Assembly: GCA_043820105.1 (NCBI GenBank)
Contig: JBDREC010000046.1
Coordinates: forward strand, 8,687 to 72,686
Length of the DNA: 64,000 nt
Source: Pseudomonadota bacterium
GTDB lineage: Bacteria; Bdellovibrionota_F; JAHFAK01; JBDREC01
Direction: 5' to 3'
The stretch's first letter is position 1. Each line of letters starts with the position of its first letter. Position numbers and translations under genes: made by a program. A model generated the notes under the pieces. That model was not told where the DNA came from. It saw only the letters and a program-made list of their open reading frames with translations, and did no database searches. Below, in pieces: positions 4,391-46,441 of the stretch.

Positions 4391-4429
4391 TATATAAAAA
4401 GGGGGTACACTCGTTAGAGCGTACCCCCC
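4391..4429 (-). terminator. Rho-independent terminator (minus-strand orientation)
   Basis: On the minus strand the RNA reads GGGGGGUACGCUCUAACGAGUGUACCCCC followed by UUUUUAUAUAU. The stem is 8-11 bp and GC-rich, with a U-tract after it. Confidence 0.5.
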
Positions 4430-4573
4430 TTGTTTCAAAAGTCTAGGACTCTGATTACCTTTGATTTCAGTATTTCTACTTCATATCATTAGCATTTTTC
4501 AAATCCTAGCCCCCTCCGAAATTGTATAAAATAGGCTTTTTTACATGCCCCTTCCAAGCAATTGCATACGTAT
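4392..4573 (-). ncRNA. Candidate sigma-54-dependent small RNA (~180 nt)
   Basis: It is bounded by a perfect sigma-54 promoter and the intrinsic terminator above. No ORF longer than 8 codons lies between them. Confidence 0.4.
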
Positions 4574-4583
4574 TGTTTCCTAG

Positions 4584-4600
4584 AGCAAGATTGGTGCCAG
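4584..4600 (-). promoter_or_regulatory. Sigma-54 (-24/-12) promoter
   Basis: The minus strand reads CTGGCACCAATCTTGCT, i.e. TGGCAC-N5-TTGCT, a full consensus match with correct GG/GC spacing. Confidence 0.5.
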
Positions 4601-4693: not shown

Positions 4694-4986
4694 TGTTCCC
4701 TTGTTTTTAAGTGTCAAAATGGGATTTGATGGACAAAAAGTGACACCAGTCACGAAATCCAGCAATATTGCGGGTTTGCAAAAAATGGCTCATCTAAGTT
4801 CTTTCTGAGCAAGGATAATACGGTTTATGCCTAGATTACGCCAAAATTGAGCATTTTACGCTTTGTGATTTTTGTCACAAAACAAGATAAATGTATATAT
4901 TACAATGCCTTATCTTTGGTGGCTCCATGGCACAGCTCTTGCTATAACTATAAAGTAAGCATCGAGGAGTAAAGGGAGAAAAAGCT

Positions 4987-5384: not shown

Positions 5385-5629
5385 GCCTGATTTTAGAAAA
5401 GGAAATCGTATCTTCATTTCAAAAAAAGACTGCTCAAAATCCCCAGCGGGATTTTGGCCTTGATCTCACCGCGCTATTTTCCAAGTATAAGTAAAATGAA
5501 ATTAATGAATTACATTCACTTATATATAGTAATTTCATTTAACTTCTACTAGGAAAAACCGGCTAGCGCGGCTCCGATACACTTTTTTTGAAATGAAGAC
5601 ACGATTCCCTTTTCTTATAAAATCAGGCC
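5385..5629. repeat. ~245-bp nested inverted-repeat element (MITE-like or long structured hairpin)
   Basis: Terminal inverted repeats of ~45 bp (gcctgattttagaaaaggaaatcgtatcttcatttcaaaaaaag versus the reverse complement of the right end) match at ~43 of 47 positions. There are also inner inverted repeats (AAAATCCC-cagc-GGGATTTT; AAATGAAATTA/TAATTTCATTT). Confidence 0.55.
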
Positions 5630-6069
5630 AATATTTAAATATAAATAAAGATAAATAATTAACAGTCTTAATAATACATCAAGATGTGTATTTTTTATAT
5701 AAGAAAATAATAGATTTTTCCGACCAAGTGGGCCGACTGGGGCGCATGCCCTTTTTAAAATAACTTCCCTGAAATTTTCATAAAAAATAAAAGGGGCCTT
5801 AATTCTCGGTTTGGAGAAAGGGTCGTTGTTTTCTCGTATTTTGCATTCAAAAATGACATTGTGGCTATGTTTTGTTTTGTTTTTAAATTATTTTAAGTGT
5901 GAAAAAATATAATAAAAACAAGGTGATCGGTATGATGAAGCTGGGGTTTTTTCATTTGGCATAGTTTTTGGATATACAAAAAGGTACGAACTCGACATTT
6001 TGTCATATTATTGCATAGTGGTTGGAAGGCATTAAAGCTAATGTTAACTACTAAAGAAGGGGGATAGTA

Positions 6070-18177: not shown

Positions 18178-18834
18178 TTATTTTAATGGGCTTACTTCGG
18201 TTATTGAAGTTCTATCATAAATTGTTTCAAAAAATGCACAATTATTTGATCCAGGATCAGGATCTGCTAAAGTGCAATTGTCTCCAGCAACATCAGCATT
18301 TAAATCCCCTACAGCTTGAACAACATACCATCCGTCAGAATCATAGGCATCAAGTTGAGCTGCTGTTCTATCGATAAAAAGACCACTGCCTGTAGGTTCT
18401 GAACAAGCACCACTTCCATCGCCAGTACTTAATGGACAGCCCGCAACTCCAGCTTCTACTACATATCTAAAGTAGACATCATAATCAGGTCTTACAGCGA
18501 CTCCACCTGGTCCCCAGGAATCGTAGTTATCTGGATTGTCGGGTTTGTTAGTTACATATGTAAATTTAAGTTTTTCACCATGAGGTAGGTTCGTTGGATT
18601 TCTCGGAAGTGGCAGGTACTGTCCATATTCAACATGGTAACTTTCTTCACCAGCTTTAATTGTCCCAAAGGCAGCTGGGATTTCTGATTTTTTTGATTTT
18701 AAAATGTATCTGTTATATGCAGTTGTGGCTAGACCTGCCAGAATTCCAATTATAACAACTGTAATCATTAACTCTACAAGTGTGAAACCATAATTATTGT
18801 TCTTTATTGTTTGATTAATTTTCATTTTCTTCAT
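18178..18834 (-). CDS. pilA: Type IV pilin (PilA-like, prepilin N-methylation domain)
   Basis: The leader ends in G, followed by FTLVELMITVVIIGILA. The C-terminal domain is Cys-rich. Confidence 0.8.
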   Translation of the reverse strand: MKKMKINQTIKNNNYGFTLVELMITVVIIGILAGLATTAYNRYILKSKKSEIPAAFGTIKAGEESYHVEYGQYLPLPRNPTNLPHGEKLKFTYVTNKPDNPDNYDSWGPGGVAVRPDYDVYFRYVVEAGVAGCPLSTGDGSGACSEPTGSGLFIDRTAAQLDAYDSDGWYVVQAVGDLNADVAGDNCTLADPDPGSNNCAFFETIYDRTSITEVSPLK

Positions 18835-20212
18835 CCTTCATATTTAATTTTTGCATTCGATATCTTAAAGATCTGTGAGATATATTGAGGAGTTTAGCGG
18901 CCTTATTTTTATTTTCTTTTGCTTTTTCCATTGCTTCTATTATAAGACTTTCTTCAAGTGTGGCTAGTTCAAAATCTAAATCAACAGTGCCCTTTGCAAA
19001 AAGTTTTTTGCCGGCGATTGTATTGCTATTGCTGGCCAAAGCATCTTGAACTTCAGGTGGCAGGGAGCTTTCCTGTATTTTATCAGTGCTTTCAAAGGCA
19101 ATGGTTCGTTCAATAATATTTTCAAGCTCTCTAATATTTCCAATATAATTATAATTAATGAGCCGCTGCATTGCTCCAGGTGTAAAACCAATTATTTTTA
19201 AATTGTTTTCCCTTACATATTTTTTAAGAAAATGTTCAGCGAGTATTGGAATATCAGGTTTTCTGTCACGAAGAGGAGGAAGATCAATTTCAACTACTTT
19301 AAGTCTGTAAAAAAGGTCTTCTCTGAACTTATTTGTTGATACATCTTTTTTCAGATCACTATTTGTTGCTGAAATAATTCTAAGGTCAACAGAAATTTCA
19401 TAGGTTCCACCTATTGGAATGAATTTTTTTTCTTGAAGCACACGAAGGAGTTTAACCTGAGTCTGGTTTGGTAATTCTCCCACTTCATCAAGGAATATTG
19501 TGCCATTATTGGCAGCTTCAAAAAGGCCTTTTTTATTGGTATCAGCTCCAGTGAATGCACCTTTTACATAACCAAACAATTCACTTTCAATTAAATTGTC
19601 AGGAATGGCGCCACAGTTAACTGGAACAAAGGGACCATTTTTAAATTTACTGTTAAAGTGAATAGCACGTGCAATAAGATCTTTTCCTGTTCCAGATTCT
19701 CCAGCAATTAAAACAGAAAGCTTTGTGTCTTTTATTCTATCAATTGTATCAAAAATTGTTCGTATTTGAGGGGTATCACCTATAATATTTCCATATCCAA
19801 ACTTATCTGTAACAAGTTTTTTTAGAGCTTTGTTTTCTTTTGCCAAAGTTGCTTTTTCAAGTGCATTTCTTATGATAATTTTAATTTCATCGACTTTAAA
19901 AGGTTTCATTATGTAGTCATAAGCACCTTTTTTCATAGCTTCAATTGCTGATTCTGTTGAAGCGTAAGCTGTTATCATGAGGACTATAATTTCACTTTTT
20001 ATTTTTTTAGCTTTATCTAAGATTTCAAATCCATCTATTTCTGGCATGCAAATATCAGTTATTACCATATCAAAATCATTATTTGCTAATAGTTGAATAG
20101 CTTTTGTGCCTGATGTTGTGCTAGTGGAATCGTAGCCCTCATTACTTAATAAGATATCAAAAAACTCGCACATACTTTTTTCATCATCAACGAAGAGGAT
20201 TTTAGACATCAA
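18815..20212 (-). CDS. pilR: Sigma-54-dependent response regulator (PilR/NtrC family)
   Basis: A receiver domain (DDE...D), an AAA+ sigma-54 interaction domain (GESGTGK, GAFTGA) and a C-terminal Fis-type HTH. Confidence 0.85.
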   Translation of the reverse strand: MMSKILFVDDEKSMCEFFDILLSNEGYDSTSTTSGTKAIQLLANNDFDMVITDICMPEIDGFEILDKAKKIKSEIIVLMITAYASTESAIEAMKKGAYDYIMKPFKVDEIKIIIRNALEKATLAKENKALKKLVTDKFGYGNIIGDTPQIRTIFDTIDRIKDTKLSVLIAGESGTGKDLIARAIHFNSKFKNGPFVPVNCGAIPDNLIESELFGYVKGAFTGADTNKKGLFEAANNGTIFLDEVGELPNQTQVKLLRVLQEKKFIPIGGTYEISVDLRIISATNSDLKKDVSTNKFREDLFYRLKVVEIDLPPLRDRKPDIPILAEHFLKKYVRENNLKIIGFTPGAMQRLINYNYIGNIRELENIIERTIAFESTDKIQESSLPPEVQDALASNSNTIAGKKLFAKGTVDLDFELATLEESLIIEAMEKAKENKNKAAKLLNISHRSLRYRMQKLNMKDEENEN

Positions 20213-31492: not shown

Positions 31493-31560
31493 TTTGAAAG
31501 TGGTAAGCTGTAGGTTGTAAGCTGTAAGAAAGGAGTACAGCGTACGGCGTACAGCGTACA
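31493..31560. repeat. Degenerate heptamer repeat block: (GTGGTAA-like)x4 then (GTACAGC)x4
   Basis: Read directly from the sequence. It lies in the pspA-pspB intergenic spacer. Confidence 0.7.
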
Positions 31561-31568
31561 GCGTTTGC

Positions 31569-32231
31569 TTATTTTCCTAGTTTTTCTTTTAGTTTTTGTA
31601 GTTCTGTTTCTATTTCGTTTTCGTGTTCTAGTTTTTCGAATTCATCTTCTAAGGATTTTTTGCCCCCCTTTATTTTCATGGCTTCTATTTCGCCTTCCAT
31701 TCTATCAATATCGCGCTCGAATTTATCGAATTTATTAAGTGCTTTTGAGGTTTCTGATTTGTGAATTTGCCTGTTCATTTCAAGTCTTGAAGCTGCTGAC
31801 TGCTTTCTGGCTATAATAGTTTTTTGTTTTGTTTTTGCTTCACTAAGTTTATCTTCAAGTTGTTTTATATCTTTTTTAAAATGATCTAAGATTTCATTAA
31901 GATTGTTAAACTCAATATTATAGTCATTTTCAATTCTTTGCTTTTTAGCTTTTTCTTCAATTGCAGCCTTTGCTAAATCATCTCTTCCTTTTTCAACGGC
32001 AAGCTCTGCTTTGCTTTGCCACATATTTTGATTTTCTTTTAAAAGTTCAATATTTCTTTCAATAGTTTTTTTGTCAGCAATGTATTTTGCTGCTTGAGAC
32101 TTGACTTCAACAAGAGTATCTTCCATCTCTTGAATCATTAGCCTGACCATTTTTTCTGGATCCTCTGCTTTATCAAGCATATGGATTATGTTTGAATTAA
32201 TAATATCTGTAAGTCTTGAAAAAATTCCCAT
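31569..32231 (-). CDS. pspA: Phage shock protein A (PspA/IM30)
   Basis: The N-terminus MGIFSRLTDIINSNI...AEDPEKMVRLMIQEMEDTLVEV is nearly identical to the E. coli PspA N-terminus. The rest is coiled-coil. Confidence 0.9.
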   Translation of the reverse strand: MGIFSRLTDIINSNIIHMLDKAEDPEKMVRLMIQEMEDTLVEVKSQAAKYIADKKTIERNIELLKENQNMWQSKAELAVEKGRDDLAKAAIEEKAKKQRIENDYNIEFNNLNEILDHFKKDIKQLEDKLSEAKTKQKTIIARKQSAASRLEMNRQIHKSETSKALNKFDKFERDIDRMEGEIEAMKIKGGKKSLEDEFEKLEHENEIETELQKLKEKLGK

Positions 32232-32616: not shown

Positions 32617-32634
32617 TTGCATGGAATGTGCCAA
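32617..32634 (-). promoter_or_regulatory. Sigma-54 promoter of the psp operon
   Basis: The minus strand reads TTGGCACATTCCATGCAAT (TGGCAC-N5-ATGCA). It is positioned as in classical PspF-dependent pspA promoters. Confidence 0.55.
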
Positions 32635-33826: not shown

Positions 33827-33896
33827 GTGGTAAGTCGTAAGTGGTAAGTGGTAAGTGGTAAGTGTTAAGTGGTAAGTGTTAAGTGGTAAGTGGTAA
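33827..33896. repeat. (GTGGTAA)10 heptamer repeat with GTCGTAA/GTGTTAA variants
   Basis: It lies 39 nt after the pspF stop. Confidence 0.9.
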
Positions 33897-33965
33897 GAAG
33901 GATAACTGGTGACAGGTGCCCTGGTGACCTATTATTAAGTTAAGAATTAATACTTAAGAGTTAAT

Positions 33966-34851: not shown

Positions 34852-35862
34852 TTGAAAAGTAAGTATATAAAATTGTTTTTAATTATTTTTTTTACCTTAT
34901 CTATTTCTATGCTTGTTCAGCCAAAAACTATTATTAAATTAGCAACAGTAGCACCAGATGGTTCTGCTTGGATGAAGATCACAAAAGAATACACAGATGC
35001 TGTTGAAAAAGCCACAAATAATCGAATAGGTTTTAAACTTTATCCCGGTGGTGTTGCAGGTGATGAAAGAGCAGTTCTGCGAAAAATGAGATTTAATCAA
35101 ATTAATGCAGCTGGCTTTACTGGGGTTGGCTTAGGAGATATTTTACCAGAGGTTAGGATTCTTGACTCACCAATGCTATTTAGATCTTATGCTGAAGTTG
35201 ATTTTGTCTTGTCAAAATTTACAAAAGATTTTGAGAGTGAATTTTTAAAAAAAGGTTTTGTTTTGTTAGGGTGGACAGAGGTTGGATTTATTTACTTTTT
35301 TTCTCAATTAAATATTCTTACAAAAGAGCTTTTATCAGAAACCAAAATGTGGACCTGGGAAGGGGACCCTGTTTCTTCTGCTATGCTTAATTCTTTAAAT
35401 GTTAAACCTATTCCACTGGCAGTTACAGATGTTTTAACATCTTTGCAAACAAACTTAATTGATTCTGTCTATACTGGCCCAGCTGCCTGTGTAGCCTTAC
35501 AATGGTTTGCAAGGATTAAATATATTTTAGATGTAAAGCTTGCTGATGCGGTTGGTGCAATTTTGATTTCAGAAAAAACTTATAATATGCTTTCAAAACC
35601 AGATAGCAAAATACTTAAAGATCTGGGTTTTGAATATATGAAAAAGCTTACCAAGATATCAAGAAAAGATAATGACGAATCATTAAGCCTAATGCAGGGA
35701 AATGGAATCACTTTATTAAAACCCACAGAAAAAGATAAAGAATTCTTTGTAAAGGCCGGACAACAGGCAAGACAAGCCCTTGTTGGAAAAATGTATTCAA
35801 AAGAATTATTAAATCGATTTGAAAAGACTTTGGAAGAGTTTAGGAAAAGTGGTAAGCGGTAA
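34852..35862 (+). CDS. dctP: TRAP transporter substrate-binding protein (DctP family)
   Basis: DctP-like periplasmic binding fold. I chose the TTG start at 34852 because AAGGAG lies 5 nt upstream. The ORF extends to 34780. Confidence 0.8.
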   Translation: MKSKYIKLFLIIFFTLSISMLVQPKTIIKLATVAPDGSAWMKITKEYTDAVEKATNNRIGFKLYPGGVAGDERAVLRKMRFNQINAAGFTGVGLGDILPEVRILDSPMLFRSYAEVDFVLSKFTKDFESEFLKKGFVLLGWTEVGFIYFFSQLNILTKELLSETKMWTWEGDPVSSAMLNSLNVKPIPLAVTDVLTSLQTNLIDSVYTGPAACVALQWFARIKYILDVKLADAVGAILISEKTYNMLSKPDSKILKDLGFEYMKKLTKISRKDNDESLSLMQGNGITLLKPTEKDKEFFVKAGQQARQALVGKMYSKELLNRFEKTLEEFRKSGKR

Positions 35863-35925
35863 GTGGTAAGGGGTAAGTGGTAAGTGGTAAGTGGTAAGTG
35901 GTAAGTCGTAAGTCGTAAGTCGTAA
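35849..35925. repeat. (GTGGTAA)11 heptamer repeat with GCGGTAA/GGGGTAA/GTCGTAA variants, overlapping the dctP stop codon
   Basis: The dctP TAA stop is the TAA of the second repeat unit. Confidence 0.9.
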
Positions 35926-40777: not shown

Positions 40778-41971
40778 CTATGATAGAGAAGCTAAAAAAT
40801 CGCATATCATTGTAGGTGAATAAATCTTTTCATCTTTTGCTGGCATTAAGGGCGTGCTGATAAATTTTACACCAAGATCTTCGATTTTATTTACATCAAT
40901 TGTGCTTCTGATTGGTGAGTTTGCAAGATCTGTTACGACGAAGTTAAGTAAATTGCTTGTGCTTACGTTATCGGAACAATCTTTTTTTAGGTATTCCAAT
41001 AATACTTTTACTGATTCATCTGGATTGAGTCCGAATCTTTCTGGGTCTTCGTAAGAGTTCATTAAATAAACTTTTGGACAATTTGCCTTTGCTATTGCTG
41101 ATCCCACGCCCTTAGGCAATAAATTTACCAATAAGGAAGAATAAAAAGAACCCATAGGATAACAGATTAAGTCAGCACTATTGATAAGCGTAACTATCTT
41201 TTCTTCAGTTTCAATATCAGCGCTTTCATTGCTTTCATGATTTCTTGTTAAGAATATATTTTTTATCTTTTTATTAAGTGGTTTTTGCTCTTTTCCTGTT
41301 ATTAAATCTTGGCCTACTAGCTTAACACCATCTGAAAGCTCGACACCAATATGCATACTTTCACTAGTTACAGGTCTGACTACTCCTCTTGATTCAACAA
41401 GCTTTGAAAACATGAAAATCACTGAATCAATATCTTTGTCTTGGGAAAAATAACCACCAACTATTATAAGGTTGCCAATACTGGCTCCTTTTAAGTCAAA
41501 ATTGTTCGGCATAATATCTACAAAGAATTGAAGGTGATTTGTAATGATTTTTCTCATTGGGTTTGAGATTATTGAAATCATTGGATGGCTGCCATTAATA
41601 ATATTTAGAAGGATTGCCAATAATTCTTCCTTTGCTTTATCAAGTGGCAACCTATGGGCAAAAAGCTTATAAATTTCTGGATTACCTTTTATAGATTGAT
41701 CAGCCAGAGCCATCATTCTATTTCTTAAATCGCCAACAGCTATCATATCAAAGGCATCTCTAATTTTTCGAGAACTTCCACCTGAATCAAAAGCTGTAAT
41801 AATATGAATAGTATTATGCGAATATTTAATTATTTCTTTGCTGATTTCCCTAAGTGCTGTGCCACCAGAAAAAAACAAAATCTTTGGTCCAAGCTCTGGA
41901 GTTTTTTTAAATCTAGCGATTTTAATTTCATCAGGAATAGAAACTTGTCTGGTTATTTCAACTTTTGTCAT
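40778..41971 (-). CDS. YvcK/CofD-family protein (gluconeogenesis factor / UPF0052)
   Basis: It has SGGTALREI (the GGGTG-like P-loop) and FDSGGSSRKIRD, which are YvcK/CofD family motifs. Confidence 0.7.
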   Translation of the reverse strand: MTKVEITRQVSIPDEIKIARFKKTPELGPKILFFSGGTALREISKEIIKYSHNTIHIITAFDSGGSSRKIRDAFDMIAVGDLRNRMMALADQSIKGNPEIYKLFAHRLPLDKAKEELLAILLNIINGSHPMISIISNPMRKIITNHLQFFVDIMPNNFDLKGASIGNLIIVGGYFSQDKDIDSVIFMFSKLVESRGVVRPVTSESMHIGVELSDGVKLVGQDLITGKEQKPLNKKIKNIFLTRNHESNESADIETEEKIVTLINSADLICYPMGSFYSSLLVNLLPKGVGSAIAKANCPKVYLMNSYEDPERFGLNPDESVKVLLEYLKKDCSDNVSTSNLLNFVVTDLANSPIRSTIDVNKIEDLGVKFISTPLMPAKDEKIYSPTMICDFLASLS

Positions 41972-42158
41972 AAAAAGATATGATCCTTTCGGTAACTATT
42001 GATAAATAAATTAAGCTTTAATAATAGTAAAATCAATGTTAAAAATTGATTTTAAAAATGTAAAACTTGTGCCTTAAAATTTTCAGTTTTAACATAAAAA
42101 TCAAATTTTGGATTTTGTAAGCTTCTGGAATTACAATCAAAATGAACATGGTGTGATT

Positions 42159-42174
42159 TGGCACACAAAGTGCA
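42159..42174 (+). promoter_or_regulatory. Sigma-54 promoter
   Basis: TTGGCACACAAAGTGCA, i.e. TGGCAC-N5-GTGCA, with correct GG/GC spacing. Confidence 0.5.
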
Positions 42175-42386
42175 AAATATAACTTTTGTATGGCTAAACA
42201 CGAAGGGAAATGGGAATGTTATCTTATACAATAATGTCAATTTATATCACTCAGACAATTATAATATCATTTAGAAATAATTATCAATTTATATGTAATA
42301 TCATTTATAGGTCAATTTATCTCAATAAAGATAAAAAGCTCCTACCATACTAAAGTAGGATTTTATTGTACACCCCATGTCATTGC

Positions 42387-42418
42387 GGAGGGGGGATGGA
42401 TATCCCCTCTCCATTTTT
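42387..42418 (+). terminator. Rho-independent terminator
   Basis: GGAGGGGGGAUGGAUAUCCCCUCUCC (an 11-bp stem with G-U wobbles) followed by AUUUUU. Confidence 0.55.
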
Positions 42419-42532
42419 AAAGCATTTAAATTCAAAATCCCGTACTACACATAATTTTTATTAATTTGATTTGTAGGTTTCAATTTTGTAAGTTTTTACA
42501 AGAATAAAGCTTTTAATTAAAGGAGGATTATC

Positions 42533-44545
42533 ATGAAAAAGGTAATTATTATTATCATTCTATCAATTTTTACCTTAAGTTGTCTTGGTTCAGATGATAC
42601 ATCTTCAGATACGACCATAACTGGTACAGTTCAAGTAATAGGTTTTGATGCTTCCACAAAAGATTTAGTGGTTAATCATCCTGTTAGTGTAAGTATTTCC
42701 GTACAATCAAAAATAGGTCTTGCCAATTTAGAGGTTTCTGTTGGACTAGTGGAAACTCCTGAAGAAAATGCAACAGAAGATGAAATGGCTGATTTGCAAT
42801 CTTGTCTTTTAGGAGTTGTTCGCTTTGAGGATCTCAAGGCAAATGTTGCTAAAACTATGCATGAAAGCTTTAGAGTGAGCTCTGATTGTGAGTTAAGTGA
42901 TACATCTAAAACCCTGAACTTTTTTACCATTATTGATATTTTTGATAAAAGTGATTTTTCAGCGGATCCTTTAAGTGATGATGGAATTGCTGCTTTTTAT
43001 ACAAAAAACCAGAGTCGTCCTAATAATAAAGTTTGCTTAACATCTGATGGTGATGTGGGATGTATTGTTAATGTTACTGTAGATGAAAATCCTGGTATAG
43101 ATTTATCTATGTCTAAATTTTCTTTGCAATCAAGTACAGTGATTTTATATGATGGCACTGATAGTTCTAATGTGCCAGCTGGTGAAGGGGAATATAATCC
43201 AGCACACGCAAAAGCTAATATAGCAATTCGCCTTGATGGAGTGAGTAGTGATGCTGAAAATGACTTAACTGCAGCTACTGAAATTCGTTATGATATATGT
43301 CCCAAAAATGGAACAAATCCAGATTGTGTTTTAGGTGAATGGATGCCTGTTACCATTTTTTCAGTAAAGGACGCTGCAAGTGGACATGATAGAATTGCTG
43401 AAGTCTCTTCTCTCAGCGGAGGGCACGATAGTTATTATCAGCATGATTTATATTTTGAAGGTGATACTTTGACTGCAATTTCAGCAGGTGGAGCTTGGGC
43501 AGATCACGGTCAATTTACGCTTCGAGCCTGCATTAACATTCCAAGAGCAGCTGAAGCAGAATTTAGTTTAAGCGCTTTTACCCCTTTAACAGAGGCTTCA
43601 GAAATGGGTTATGGTGAAAGCCTGGATAATAATTGTAAATATTTTAAGGTAAATATTACTGAACCAAGGGATCAGGGTAATTCGCCTTCTTTAAGCTTTG
43701 ATCATTCATATTCTAATACTTGGGGAGATGATGATACAATTGCTGTTTACGCAGATATCGGGACTACTAACACCCTTGACAGTGAAGGAGCCCATTCCCA
43801 TACCTATGCTGAAGTAAAACTAGAAGGCTGGATTTCTTCAACCATTTTTCATGCAGACTCAGATGTAGATGCTGATACTGATATTTCTGATAATGAAATT
43901 GACTTAACGGTCGTTGCTATGGATTCAACTGTTTACAGCTATTCAAGAGAAGGTGAGTCAGAACTAACTTTTGATGAGGATTGGTCTGTTTCTAAAAAGA
44001 TTTGTGCAACTTTTTCCTATGGAATTTGGATTGTGAGTGTTGATGTAGATGTTTGTGCTTCTGGATCTTTGGGATTTGATGCGACGCTTACGATGTCATC
44101 TCACGCTGGGGATGATACAAGTAATTTTGATACAACTACAACTGCATATGGTGAAGCAATCCCAACCATTACTCCAAGTCTTGATTTTGATGCTTCAGCC
44201 ACAGCATCACTAGATGCAGTTATTTATGAAGCAGGAGCCAAGGCTTCCATTTCACTGCTTGATCTTTCCTCGCCGTTAACGGCCTCATTAAAATGGGGAT
44301 CTTATAGTGATTCAGAAATGGGTGTTATTGTTGATGTGGACTTCTCAACAGATATTACAACTCTAGATGGTTATCTTGAATTATACGTTGATAAAAAGGA
44401 AGTGGATTGCGTTCATGATTATGAACCTTGGACTTGCAGTTCATATTGGCACCGTGAAGACACTGATACAATTGCATCATGGACTGCTGTAACATATGAT
44501 CATTCTCTCTTAAATGAAACAACTTCAGATACCTTAGAATTTTAA
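42533..44545 (+). CDS. Large acidic lipoprotein (hypothetical)
   Basis: An RBS (AAAGGAGGA) and a lipobox (FTLSCLG). 670 aa, rich in D/S/T with paired Cys. Confidence 0.6.
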   Translation: MKKVIIIIILSIFTLSCLGSDDTSSDTTITGTVQVIGFDASTKDLVVNHPVSVSISVQSKIGLANLEVSVGLVETPEENATEDEMADLQSCLLGVVRFEDLKANVAKTMHESFRVSSDCELSDTSKTLNFFTIIDIFDKSDFSADPLSDDGIAAFYTKNQSRPNNKVCLTSDGDVGCIVNVTVDENPGIDLSMSKFSLQSSTVILYDGTDSSNVPAGEGEYNPAHAKANIAIRLDGVSSDAENDLTAATEIRYDICPKNGTNPDCVLGEWMPVTIFSVKDAASGHDRIAEVSSLSGGHDSYYQHDLYFEGDTLTAISAGGAWADHGQFTLRACINIPRAAEAEFSLSAFTPLTEASEMGYGESLDNNCKYFKVNITEPRDQGNSPSLSFDHSYSNTWGDDDTIAVYADIGTTNTLDSEGAHSHTYAEVKLEGWISSTIFHADSDVDADTDISDNEIDLTVVAMDSTVYSYSREGESELTFDEDWSVSKKICATFSYGIWIVSVDVDVCASGSLGFDATLTMSSHAGDDTSNFDTTTTAYGEAIPTITPSLDFDASATASLDAVIYEAGAKASISLLDLSSPLTASLKWGSYSDSEMGVIVDVDFSTDITTLDGYLELYVDKKEVDCVHDYEPWTCSSYWHREDTDTIASWTAVTYDHSLLNETTSDTLEF

Positions 44546-44548
44546 TAA

Positions 44549-46441
44549 ATGTATTTTAAGAATAAAAAAATATATTTTTATATTTTAATTTTTCTTTTTA
44601 TTGTAGGCTGTTTTTTTCTCATAAAGGAAACTTATTTCTCAAATAATAAATCAATCGCTAATTTAGAAATATGTAACATGCAAAAAGATGATGGTTTTTC
44701 CTATGAGTTTGAAATTGATACTCGTGCCACATTTTCTTTATCGTCTTTTATGGGAAAGAAAGCAAATAAAGAAAATCTTCAAAAAACACATAATCTAATG
44801 AAAGGCAAAATAAGTTTTAGAGCACTGAAAGATACTGATGATAGGACTTTAATGGCAGGCCAATTGAGTGAATTGGAGTATGAAATTAACAAAAGAAAAG
44901 CTTTTGAATCTATAAAAGAACTTAGCATTCCTTTTAAGTTTAAACTTGGAAGCAATTGTTCAATATCAGAAATAGATTTATCCTATATTCCTAATAAGAA
45001 AAATAAACAGTTAATTGAAAATGTTATTTATGAACTGCAAATGACTTTTTTAGGTGATGAAAACCAAGAAAAATGGCAAGCAAAAGAAGAAAATGCTCTT
45101 GCAGGCTATGAAGCAAATTATTTGGTCAATGAAATTTCTAAAGATAGCATTTCTATTCATAAAGCTAAGGAAAAATATTTTACTTCAAATACTAGTTCCA
45201 ATAAATCAAATGAGAGTATTAATGTTATTTCATCTGACATCAACATTAGTATATCAAAAAATAAAAAGTGGTTTGATTCAATAAGTACAAAGGAAAGTAT
45301 TGAGATTTTAAAAAATGATGAAATATTCATGCAAGTTGAAAACAAATTAAAAATAAAAAAGTATTTAAAGCCTATTGAAAATTTAGCCCTATGGCAAGAT
45401 GATATCTTTTCAGAATATGAAAATCCTATTGATATAGAAAACTTTTCAAAGATCTATCGCAAATCCCAATTAAGTCATGAATCTAATGAGCGTGATATCA
45501 ATACATTAATAAATAGGTCTTTAAATAGGTCTTTTTCACAAATTTTAGAAGATTATAAAAAAAATATCTTATCAAAAAATCCTTTAGAAAAATCAAAGGC
45601 ACTTGATCTTTTAGTTTCTTATTTAAGGGCAAAAGAAGGGGCTAGCCTTGAGCTTACTCATGCAATAAAGACAGGTGACCTGGAAAATGAATACCAATCT
45701 ATGGCCTTTTTAGCACTGGAACTATCTTCAACTAACGAGTCACAAAAAGCCTTAATGGATGTTTTGCAGGATGTTGATCATAGTTCAATGAATAGAATGC
45801 GATCTGTGATTGCTTTGCAGGATATAAAGAATCCAGCTCCAGAAGTTTTTGATTCAATGATAATTCAAATGAATAAATCAGTTCCGGAAAACGTTGATCG
45901 TGGTGAAAATGATGTTGCAAGAACAAGTGCTTTATCTTTGGGTACATTGGCTGCAAATAATAAAGAAGCTTTTGGAGCTAGAGCTAAAGAAGAATTATTA
46001 AAAAACCTTAAAAGCGCAAATAATTCGTCAGAAACAGCGCTTTATATAAGAGCCTTGGGAAATACTAAGAATCCTTTATTAATTGATGACATAGTCCCAT
46101 ATTTAAATTCCTCTTCAAGCTCTGTACGGTCAGCTTCTGCTGACACTATTGGAGCTATAGATTCAGTGCAATCAGAAGCAATTCTTCTTAATCAGTTTTC
46201 AGAAGAAGAATCTAAAAAGGTTCGTTTAAGTATCATGAAATCTTTAAATAAATTAAGCAAAACAAGTGAAAATTCAACCAATTCCATATCAAATCTCATC
46301 TTATTTGAAGAAAATAAGGATGTGAGAGCTCAAATGATTATTTTTTTAGGTCAAAGGGCTGCTTATAAGGCTCTGTTAAACTTTAAAAACCATGAAAAAG
46401 ATAGTGATAATATAGCGTTAATTGGACGATATATAAAATAG
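44549..46441 (+). CDS. Membrane-anchored protein with C-terminal HEAT/PBS-lyase-like repeats (hypothetical)
   Basis: An N-terminal TM segment. The C-terminal repeats (RSVIALQDI..., VRSASADTIGAI...) resemble HEAT repeats. It sits 3 nt after the previous gene. Confidence 0.55.
   Translation: MYFKNKKIYFYILIFLFIVGCFFLIKETYFSNNKSIANLEICNMQKDDGFSYEFEIDTRATFSLSSFMGKKANKENLQKTHNLMKGKISFRALKDTDDRTLMAGQLSELEYEINKRKAFESIKELSIPFKFKLGSNCSISEIDLSYIPNKKNKQLIENVIYELQMTFLGDENQEKWQAKEENALAGYEANYLVNEISKDSISIHKAKEKYFTSNTSSNKSNESINVISSDINISISKNKKWFDSISTKESIEILKNDEIFMQVENKLKIKKYLKPIENLALWQDDIFSEYENPIDIENFSKIYRKSQLSHESNERDINTLINRSLNRSFSQILEDYKKNILSKNPLEKSKALDLLVSYLRAKEGASLELTHAIKTGDLENEYQSMAFLALELSSTNESQKALMDVLQDVDHSSMNRMRSVIALQDIKNPAPEVFDSMIIQMNKSVPENVDRGENDVARTSALSLGTLAANNKEAFGARAKEELLKNLKSANNSSETALYIRALGNTKNPLLIDDIVPYLNSSSSSVRSASADTIGAIDSVQSEAILLNQFSEEESKKVRLSIMKSLNKLSKTSENSTNSISNLILFEENKDVRAQMIIFLGQRAAYKALLNFKNHEKDSDNIALIGRYIK

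Follow-up and report, generated by a model that had tools for sequence, protein, structure and literature searches.

Why should an exact sigma-54 promoter lead, by way of short repeats, into a strong intrinsic terminator that stands before the start of a lipoprotein operon? We asked whether this arrangement makes a small RNA of its own, a leader of the operon, a control region for the divergent gene on the other side, or a small protein. The analysed DNA, hereafter the window, is a single 64-kb stretch with ~32% G+C. Its host is an uncultivated, AT-rich, deltaproteobacteria-like organism of a deep-branching lineage. The unit in question lies inside a 561-bp spacer (41972–42532, 26% G+C) flanked by divergent genes, and the features of the spacer and its borders are as follows.

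40778–41971, minus strand: gene for a GAK-system CofD-like protein (TIGR04357, E = 2.5e-147), with its ATG at 41971
42028–42054, no strand assigned: palindrome TAAAATCAAT-N7-ATTGATTTTA with perfect 10-nt arms, at -131 to -105 from TGGCAC
42159–42174, plus strand: sigma-54 (-24/-12) promoter TGGCAC-N5-GTGCA, TGGCACACAAAGTGCA, an exact and intergenic match
42185–42418, plus strand: candidate non-coding RNA of ~233 nt (~180 nt if the first hairpin stops it), placed from the positions of promoter and terminator
42210–42353, plus strand: 47-codon ORF (MGMLSYTIM...), judged not to be a gene
42236–42324, plus strand: AU-rich repeat block with TCAATTTAT three times and TAATATCATTTA twice, giving five TCA(A)TTTA cores
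42287–42258, minus strand: near-consensus sigma-70-type promoter TTGATA-18-TATAAT, within the repeats and pointing at the CofD-like gene
42340–42369, no strand assigned: weak hairpin UCCUAC...GUAGGA between an A-run and a U-run (dG -6.4 on the plus and -8.8 on the minus strand), terminator-like on both strands
42387–42418, plus strand: strong intrinsic terminator GGAGGGGGGAU-GGAU-AUCCCCUCUCC, a hairpin at 42387–42412 followed by AUUUUU
42520–42535, plus strand: SD AAGGAGG (42520–42526) and the lipoprotein ATG at 42533
42533–44545, plus strand: gene for a 670-aa putative lipoprotein, the first of a lipoprotein/HEAT-repeat pair that spans 42533–46441

We read the spacer, with moderate confidence, as holding a predicted autonomous sigma-54-dependent sRNA gene of ~233 nt. 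The promoter and the terminator carry most of this reading. Within TGGCACACAAAGTGCA the GG doublet (42160–61) and the GC doublet (42172–73) are exactly 10 nt apart, as sigma-54 promoters require, and the element departs from the core consensus TGGCAC-N5-TTGCW only once, with a G for T at -15. Transcription is predicted to start ~12 nt past the GC doublet, at ~42185. Exact matches to TGGCAC-N5-KTGCW number four in the window versus 0.06 expected from shuffles, and all four are intergenic; with one mismatch allowed there are 11 versus 2.7 expected. The sigma-54 element that the initial annotation had placed at 42159–42174 therefore stands as an exact match, far above chance. A PilR-like sigma-54 activator is encoded at 18815–20212 on the minus strand (Sigma54_activat domain, E = 6.7e-70) with a PilS-like kinase adjoining, and by this activator gene the organism qualifies as a user of sigma-54. 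The rpoN gene itself lies outside the window. One-mismatch matches were also found near ORFs, at the following positions.

32618–32633, minus strand: one-mismatch sigma-54 match, predicted start 37–65 nt 5' of a 90-aa ORF
61718–61733, minus strand: one-mismatch sigma-54 match, predicted start 37–65 nt 5' of the ORF of a 1215-aa protein without a Pfam match
62072–62087, plus strand: one-mismatch sigma-54 match, predicted start 37–65 nt 5' of the ORF of an OmpA-domain protein

Their placement suggests that this organism makes heavy use of sigma-54.

Activator sites usually lie ~80–150 bp upstream of sigma-54 promoters, and the palindrome at 42028–42054 is at this usual distance. It is unique in the window, and a palindrome arm of 10 nt was reached in 45 of 1000 shuffles of the upstream 187 nt (p ~0.045). 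From its position it is a candidate site for an enhancer-binding protein (bEBP), though a role as operator of the CofD-like gene is just as possible. The spacer contained no match to the IHF consensus WATCAANNNNTTR.

Terminators were scanned over the whole 64 kb twice, once with strict stems and once by energy. The hairpin at 42387–42412 has an 11-bp stem with seven G-C pairs and a 4-nt loop (GGAU), with a dG of -19.5 to -21 kcal/mol, and is specific to the plus strand, the minus-strand version being without a U-run. These properties (a G+C-rich stem, a short loop and a U-run on the plus strand only) agree with the strong intrinsic terminator reported for 42387–42418 before. At -19.5 kcal/mol it ranked second among the terminator-like sites of the window, behind 4398–4431 on the minus strand (-26 kcal/mol). 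The third site (-16.8 kcal/mol) likewise did not stand behind a protein gene, and the remainder, at -13.4 kcal/mol or weaker, were almost all intragenic. None of the protein genes in the window ends with a hairpin comparable to the two outstanding ones. Since the upstream gene is divergent and the U-run is on the plus strand only, the terminator at 42387–42418 can only stop a transcript begun within the spacer. From the end of the U-run at 42418 there are a further 114 nt to the lipoprotein ATG at 42533.

Each of the two outstanding terminators follows an exact sigma-54 match on its own strand. Their hairpins begin 140–200 nt past the predicted start, and their U-runs end ~180 nt (at 4393) and ~233 nt (at 42418) from it. 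By our own estimate, the probability that terminators and sigma-54 promoters would pair in this way by chance is ~1e-4 or less. The second such unit is the following.

4599–4393, minus strand: sister unit, with an exact sigma-54 promoter TGGCACCAATCTTGCT at 4599–4584, a 180-nt RNA at 4573–4393 and a terminator at 4398–4431

The predicted sister RNA (4573–4393, minus strand) is free of ORFs and folds well below its shuffles (z = -6.2), and Rfam gave no match to it. Facing away from it, another exact sigma-54 promoter (4928–4943, plus strand) drives a gene for a DUF5658 membrane protein, and a co-oriented PFK gene follows ~310 nt downstream. The missing ORF, the z of -6.2 and the paired promoter and terminator together make a class of sigma-54-dependent sRNAs credible in this organism. 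The sister RNA and the plus-strand RNA at 42185–42420 have short collinear blocks in common at similar distances from their predicted starts, namely GUAUG at +4/+5, GAAGGG at ~+19, UAUNUUAUACAAU at +33/+38 and CGGAGGGGG further on. Local alignment of the two gave p = 0.13 over their whole length and p = 0.019 over the first 80 nt, and semi-global alignment was not significant. We rejected paralogy of the two units, as the alignment was not significant overall. The three-block pattern common to both had one match in metagenome DNA, within an ORF of an unrelated contig, which we took as chance.

Other repeats and hairpins were seen elsewhere in the window. Tandem heptamer arrays (GGTAAGT)n, with variants such as GTAAGCT and GTACAGC, occupy intergenic positions at 2885–2970, 31500–31575, 33828–33898 and 35850–35918. 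A 717-bp spacer contains a long nested inverted repeat (5395–5615), with outer arms at 5395–5428 and 5582–5615 (34 nt, 94% complementarity) and inner arms at 5477–5504 and 5530–5557 (28 nt, 89%). This inverted repeat, perhaps a structured RNA or a MITE-like element, includes the terminator-like hairpin that ranks third by strength in the window (5426–5467, minus strand, -16.8 kcal/mol).

The unit has its own promoter, its own terminator and no coding capacity by sequence, the attributes of a trans-acting sRNA gene. The 47-codon ORF at 42210–42353 had a codon-usage score of -0.185, compared with a mean of -0.143 (sd 0.19) for spurious stop-free frames, and fell below all 345 real-gene segments of 45 codons (mean 0.239). 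NCBI annotation does not include it, and the accessions of the flanking proteins are consecutive with no gap. A HMMER scan of 1.84 billion proteins with this ORF returned only one match, a low-complexity repeat protein of biased composition. We rejected the ORF as a gene on its non-coding codon score, its missing annotation and this lone match, taken as spurious. Outside the terminator the candidate RNA has a weak fold (z = -1.27) that is not more stable than its shuffles.

The body of the unit carries the AU-rich repeats. TCAATTTAT occurs at 42237, 42284 and 42312, which are three of its six copies in the window with both strands counted, and TAATATCATTTA at 42262 and 42296. Tandem Repeats Finder (TRF) reported a 16-nt period with 2.9 copies at 42261–42309. 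Repeat content exceeded that of dinucleotide shuffles of the leader (p ~0.0005–0.01), with p only ~0.1–0.2 against shuffles of the whole 561-nt spacer, and the block ranked fourth among 120-nt spots of the window by repeat richness. The initial annotation had described ~2.5 copies of a 30–45-nt direct repeat at 42236–42347. Repeats are there, without the regularity that was stated: the units measure 48, 27 and 14 nt and are unphased, and the TCA(A)TTTA cores start at the irregularly spaced positions 42237, 42267, 42284, 42301 and 42312. Nor does the term 'iteron-like' suit them. Iterons are regularly spaced repeats of ~17–22 bp beside a rep gene or origin, and plasmid iterons share with this block the occurrence of direct repeats in AT-rich DNA. 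Here, by contrast, the units are short (9–14 nt), irregularly spaced and AT-rich, neither a rep gene nor an origin gives them a replication context, the genes around them are chromosomal and of housekeeping type, and the repeats overlap the sigma-70-type promoter on the minus strand. They are a minor feature of the unit and would most simply be read as a decayed local duplication. By analogy with CrcZ and CsrB, the UCA(A)UUUA motifs could as RNA serve as protein-binding repeats.

If the unit is an sRNA gene, an enhancer-binding protein, probably at the palindrome 42028–42054, would activate the sigma-54 holoenzyme at 42159–42174. Transcription would start near 42185 and run through an AU-rich, weakly structured body with the five UCA(A)UUUA motifs, and most transcripts would end at 42387–42418 to give an RNA of ~233 nt, a length that we infer from the positions of promoter and terminator. 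A minor species of ~180 nt may stop at the weak hairpin 42340–42369. Read-through into the lipoprotein/HEAT operon is possible, and the model does not need it.

The main alternative, a serious one though rather unlikely in our judgement, is that the sigma-54 promoter serves the lipoprotein/HEAT operon and that the 348-nt leader is a conditional attenuator or antiterminator switch, with most transcripts stopping at 42418 except when the terminator is masked by a factor or by an alternative fold. The unit is co-oriented with the operon and directly 5' of it. The 114 nt past the terminator hold no strong sigma-70-like promoter (best match 8/12), so the operon could depend on read-through; a best score of 8/12 is ordinary for genes of the window, however, and does not discriminate. 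The element CACCCCAU (42371–42378) can base-pair with the terminator's 5' arm, leaving out the 3' arm, at ~-9 kcal/mol, and in the full fold it pairs instead with AUGGG at 42210–42214, which would allow a three-state arrangement. The terminator itself is much more stable than this alternative (-21 versus -9 kcal/mol). Precedent exists in the sigma-54-dependent nasF leader of Klebsiella with NasR antitermination and in the NasT/ANTAR leaders, in which a sigma-54 promoter is followed by a factor-independent terminator within the leader before the operon. Unlike nasF, the spacer has no paired hexaloop hairpins, its leader would be three times longer, and homologous operons are without such a leader. 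The neighbourhood also lacks a gene for NasR, ANTAR, BglG or another RNA-binding antiterminator, and the adjacent regulator is of the DNA-binding NarL/GerE type. Sigma-54 promoters are, moreover, already tightly switched, and the others in the window have short leaders.

Database searches bear on the same choice. A covariance-model search had been suggested for the locus in the initial annotation; with Rfam 15 (including Qrr, GlmY/Z, CrcZ, Pxr, riboswitches and leaders) it gave zero matches in the window at the gathering score, and the unit matches none of the families described there. A lax scan of 41900–42700 returned chance-level matches only (E at least 0.7). Downstream of the lipoprotein gene come genes for a 630-aa HEAT-repeat protein, a histidine kinase and a NarL/GerE-type response regulator. 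The HEAT-repeat protein matches HEAT_2, with an additional weak match to Vitellogenin_N, and Pfam and NCBIfam searches with the lipoprotein gave no match. A search of 5.8 billion protein clusters found just three homologues of the lipoprotein, at 40–48% identity and each followed by a HEAT protein. Lipoprotein and HEAT-repeat protein thus form a conserved but very rare gene pair. The regions upstream of the homologous operons (L001, L004 and L005) had no sigma-54 promoter and no similarity to the leader at 42185–42418. The L001 operon, from another MAG, has heptamer arrays of a different kind (GTCTAGC, GTGTTCA, GTGATTA) in its 450-bp upstream region, at L001 positions 5690–5770.

The initial annotation had left the choice at either a sigma-54 sRNA or an attenuator-type leader. 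A short sigma-54-driven unit with a strong terminator is upheld, and sRNA and leader are inseparable by sequence, with the sRNA favoured. We favour it because the predicted start is 348 nt from the lipoprotein ATG while the other sigma-54 starts of the window are, by our own arithmetic, 33–65 nt from their ORFs; because the three homologous lipoprotein/HEAT operons have neither a sigma-54 promoter nor a similar leader; and because no riboswitch or leader family matches and there is no convincing antiterminator. The two readings are also non-exclusive, since a leader whose transcription ends early can function as an sRNA too.

The spacer might instead regulate the orphan CofD-like gene, with the plus-strand sigma-54 motif silent or irrelevant, the repeats acting as duplicated -35/-10-like modules or regulator sites for the promoter 42287–42258, and the hairpins incidental; we consider this improbable. 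TTGATA-18-TATAAT belongs to only four sigma-70 matches of 11/12 in the window, of which two, itself included, are intergenic. Its predicted minus-strand start, if the promoter is active, is at ~42251. On the minus strand the TCAATTTAT copies all read TTGA(C/T), and the weak hairpin (42340–42360) makes the better terminator on that strand. The CofD-like gene is solitary here, whereas its homologue in another locus (L010) is the last enzyme gene of a GAK operon with PhoU/EcKL kinase, RimK-type ATP-grasp, HprK-like and Amphi-Trp genes, and these GAK partners were undetectable in the window. Stripped of its usual operon partners, the gene therefore requires its own promoter. Yet control of the CofD-like gene leaves unexplained both an exact sigma-54 match for which 0.06 is expected by chance and a plus-strand-specific terminator of -20 kcal/mol, the second strongest in the window and correctly placed downstream. 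It is also not mutually exclusive with a plus-strand unit. If both promoters fire, the plus and minus RNAs would be complementary over ~42185–42251, about the first 66 nt of the plus-strand RNA.

Two further origins for the spacer were rejected. A decayed GAK gene gave no tblastn signal, and a mobile or repeated element is at odds with the single occurrence of the spacer in the window. A short motif, ATTTTGTAAG(C/T)TT, occurs twice within it, at 42107–42124 just 5' of the sigma-54 promoter and at 42478–42495, 30–50 nt before the lipoprotein ATG, where it makes a small palindrome, TTGTAAGTTTTTACAA. The NarL/GerE-type regulator encoded nearby may bind this motif; chance occurrence in AT-rich DNA is the other possibility.

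Least probable, and very unlikely in our view, is that the unit encodes a small hydrophobic protein of 45–47 aa, possibly type I toxin-like, with an antisense RNA over its 5' region: the ORF starts 25–31 nt past the predicted start and is preceded by GAAGGGAAA, a 47-codon open frame is uncommon at 26% G+C, the first 19 residues are moderately hydrophobic by our own estimate, and the strong divergent promoter would yield antisense RNA across the SD and start codon, but the codon score is mid-range for spurious frames and under every real-gene segment tested, the ORF is without annotation and has a low-complexity protein as its sole match, and the repeat copies are in differing reading frames.

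As a predicted sRNA gene, the unit resembles several known systems in design. GlmY and GlmZ of Enterobacteria are sRNAs of ~150–200 nt that depend on sigma-54 and GlrR and have terminators; the candidate differs from them in having neither an Rfam match nor a glmS or glrKR context. CrcZ and CrcY are a few hundred nucleotides long, with an unstructured body in which multiple short motifs titrate a protein, and with a terminal terminator. The candidate is like them in its sigma-54 promoter, its predicted length, its unstructured body with a repeated motif and its terminator. CrcZ and CrcY of Pseudomonas and Azotobacter depend on sigma-54 and CbrB (PMC6292655). The motif here is UCA(A)UUUA and not their A-rich CA motif, there is no Rfam match, and the repeats are modestly above chance. 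Qrr sRNAs come from orphan intergenic genes, several per genome, each of which has a -24/-12 promoter for sigma-54, a site for the activator upstream of it and, at the end, an intrinsic terminator (PMC3730234). The orphan intergenic position, the promoter-terminator layout and the presence of several units are common to the candidate and to Qrr1-5 of Vibrio, which depend on sigma-54 and LuxO. In contrast to Qrr, the candidate has no sequence or covariance-model similarity to that family, is ~233 rather than ~100 nt long, has no known conserved seed and belongs to an unrelated organism.

What such an RNA would act on can be put forward only speculatively. When the RNA was folded as a duplex with every start region in the window, no informative target emerged, and the adjacent genes were no outliers. 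One doubtful proposal, in which we place little confidence, is a lineage-specific sponge or antisense regulator under sigma-54 control. Like CrcZ or CsrB, it would use its five UCA(A)UUUA motifs to sequester an RNA-binding protein, and the 66 nt at its 5' end would base-pair with the mRNA leader of the divergent orphan CofD-like gene; together with the unit at 4599–4393 on the minus strand it would form a set of sigma-54 sRNAs.

Comparison with other genomes placed the organism apart. Scans of genome collections with the lipoprotein and with the CofD-like protein yielded nothing useful, and the best homologue of the CofD-like protein was 54% identical and in a different gene context. The closest UvrA in public data was 73% identical, on a 6-kb contig without synteny. 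No close relatives of the organism were found in the collections searched, and a scan of metagenome DNA with the promoter 20-mer gave zero matches. That a UvrA of 73% identity is the nearest shows the isolation of the lineage.

To our knowledge, the sigma-54-dependent sRNAs described so far, Qrr, CrcZ/Y and GlmY/Z, come from a few model Proteobacteria. The result has no bearing on any long-standing open question. An exact -24/-12 promoter within ~250 nt of a strong terminator, in a genome otherwise without such terminators, may be a genomic signature, and this promoter-terminator signature could find such RNAs in MAGs from sequence alone. Two promoter-to-terminator units in 64 kb of an uncultivated lineage suggest that the sigma-54 sRNA design is in wider use.
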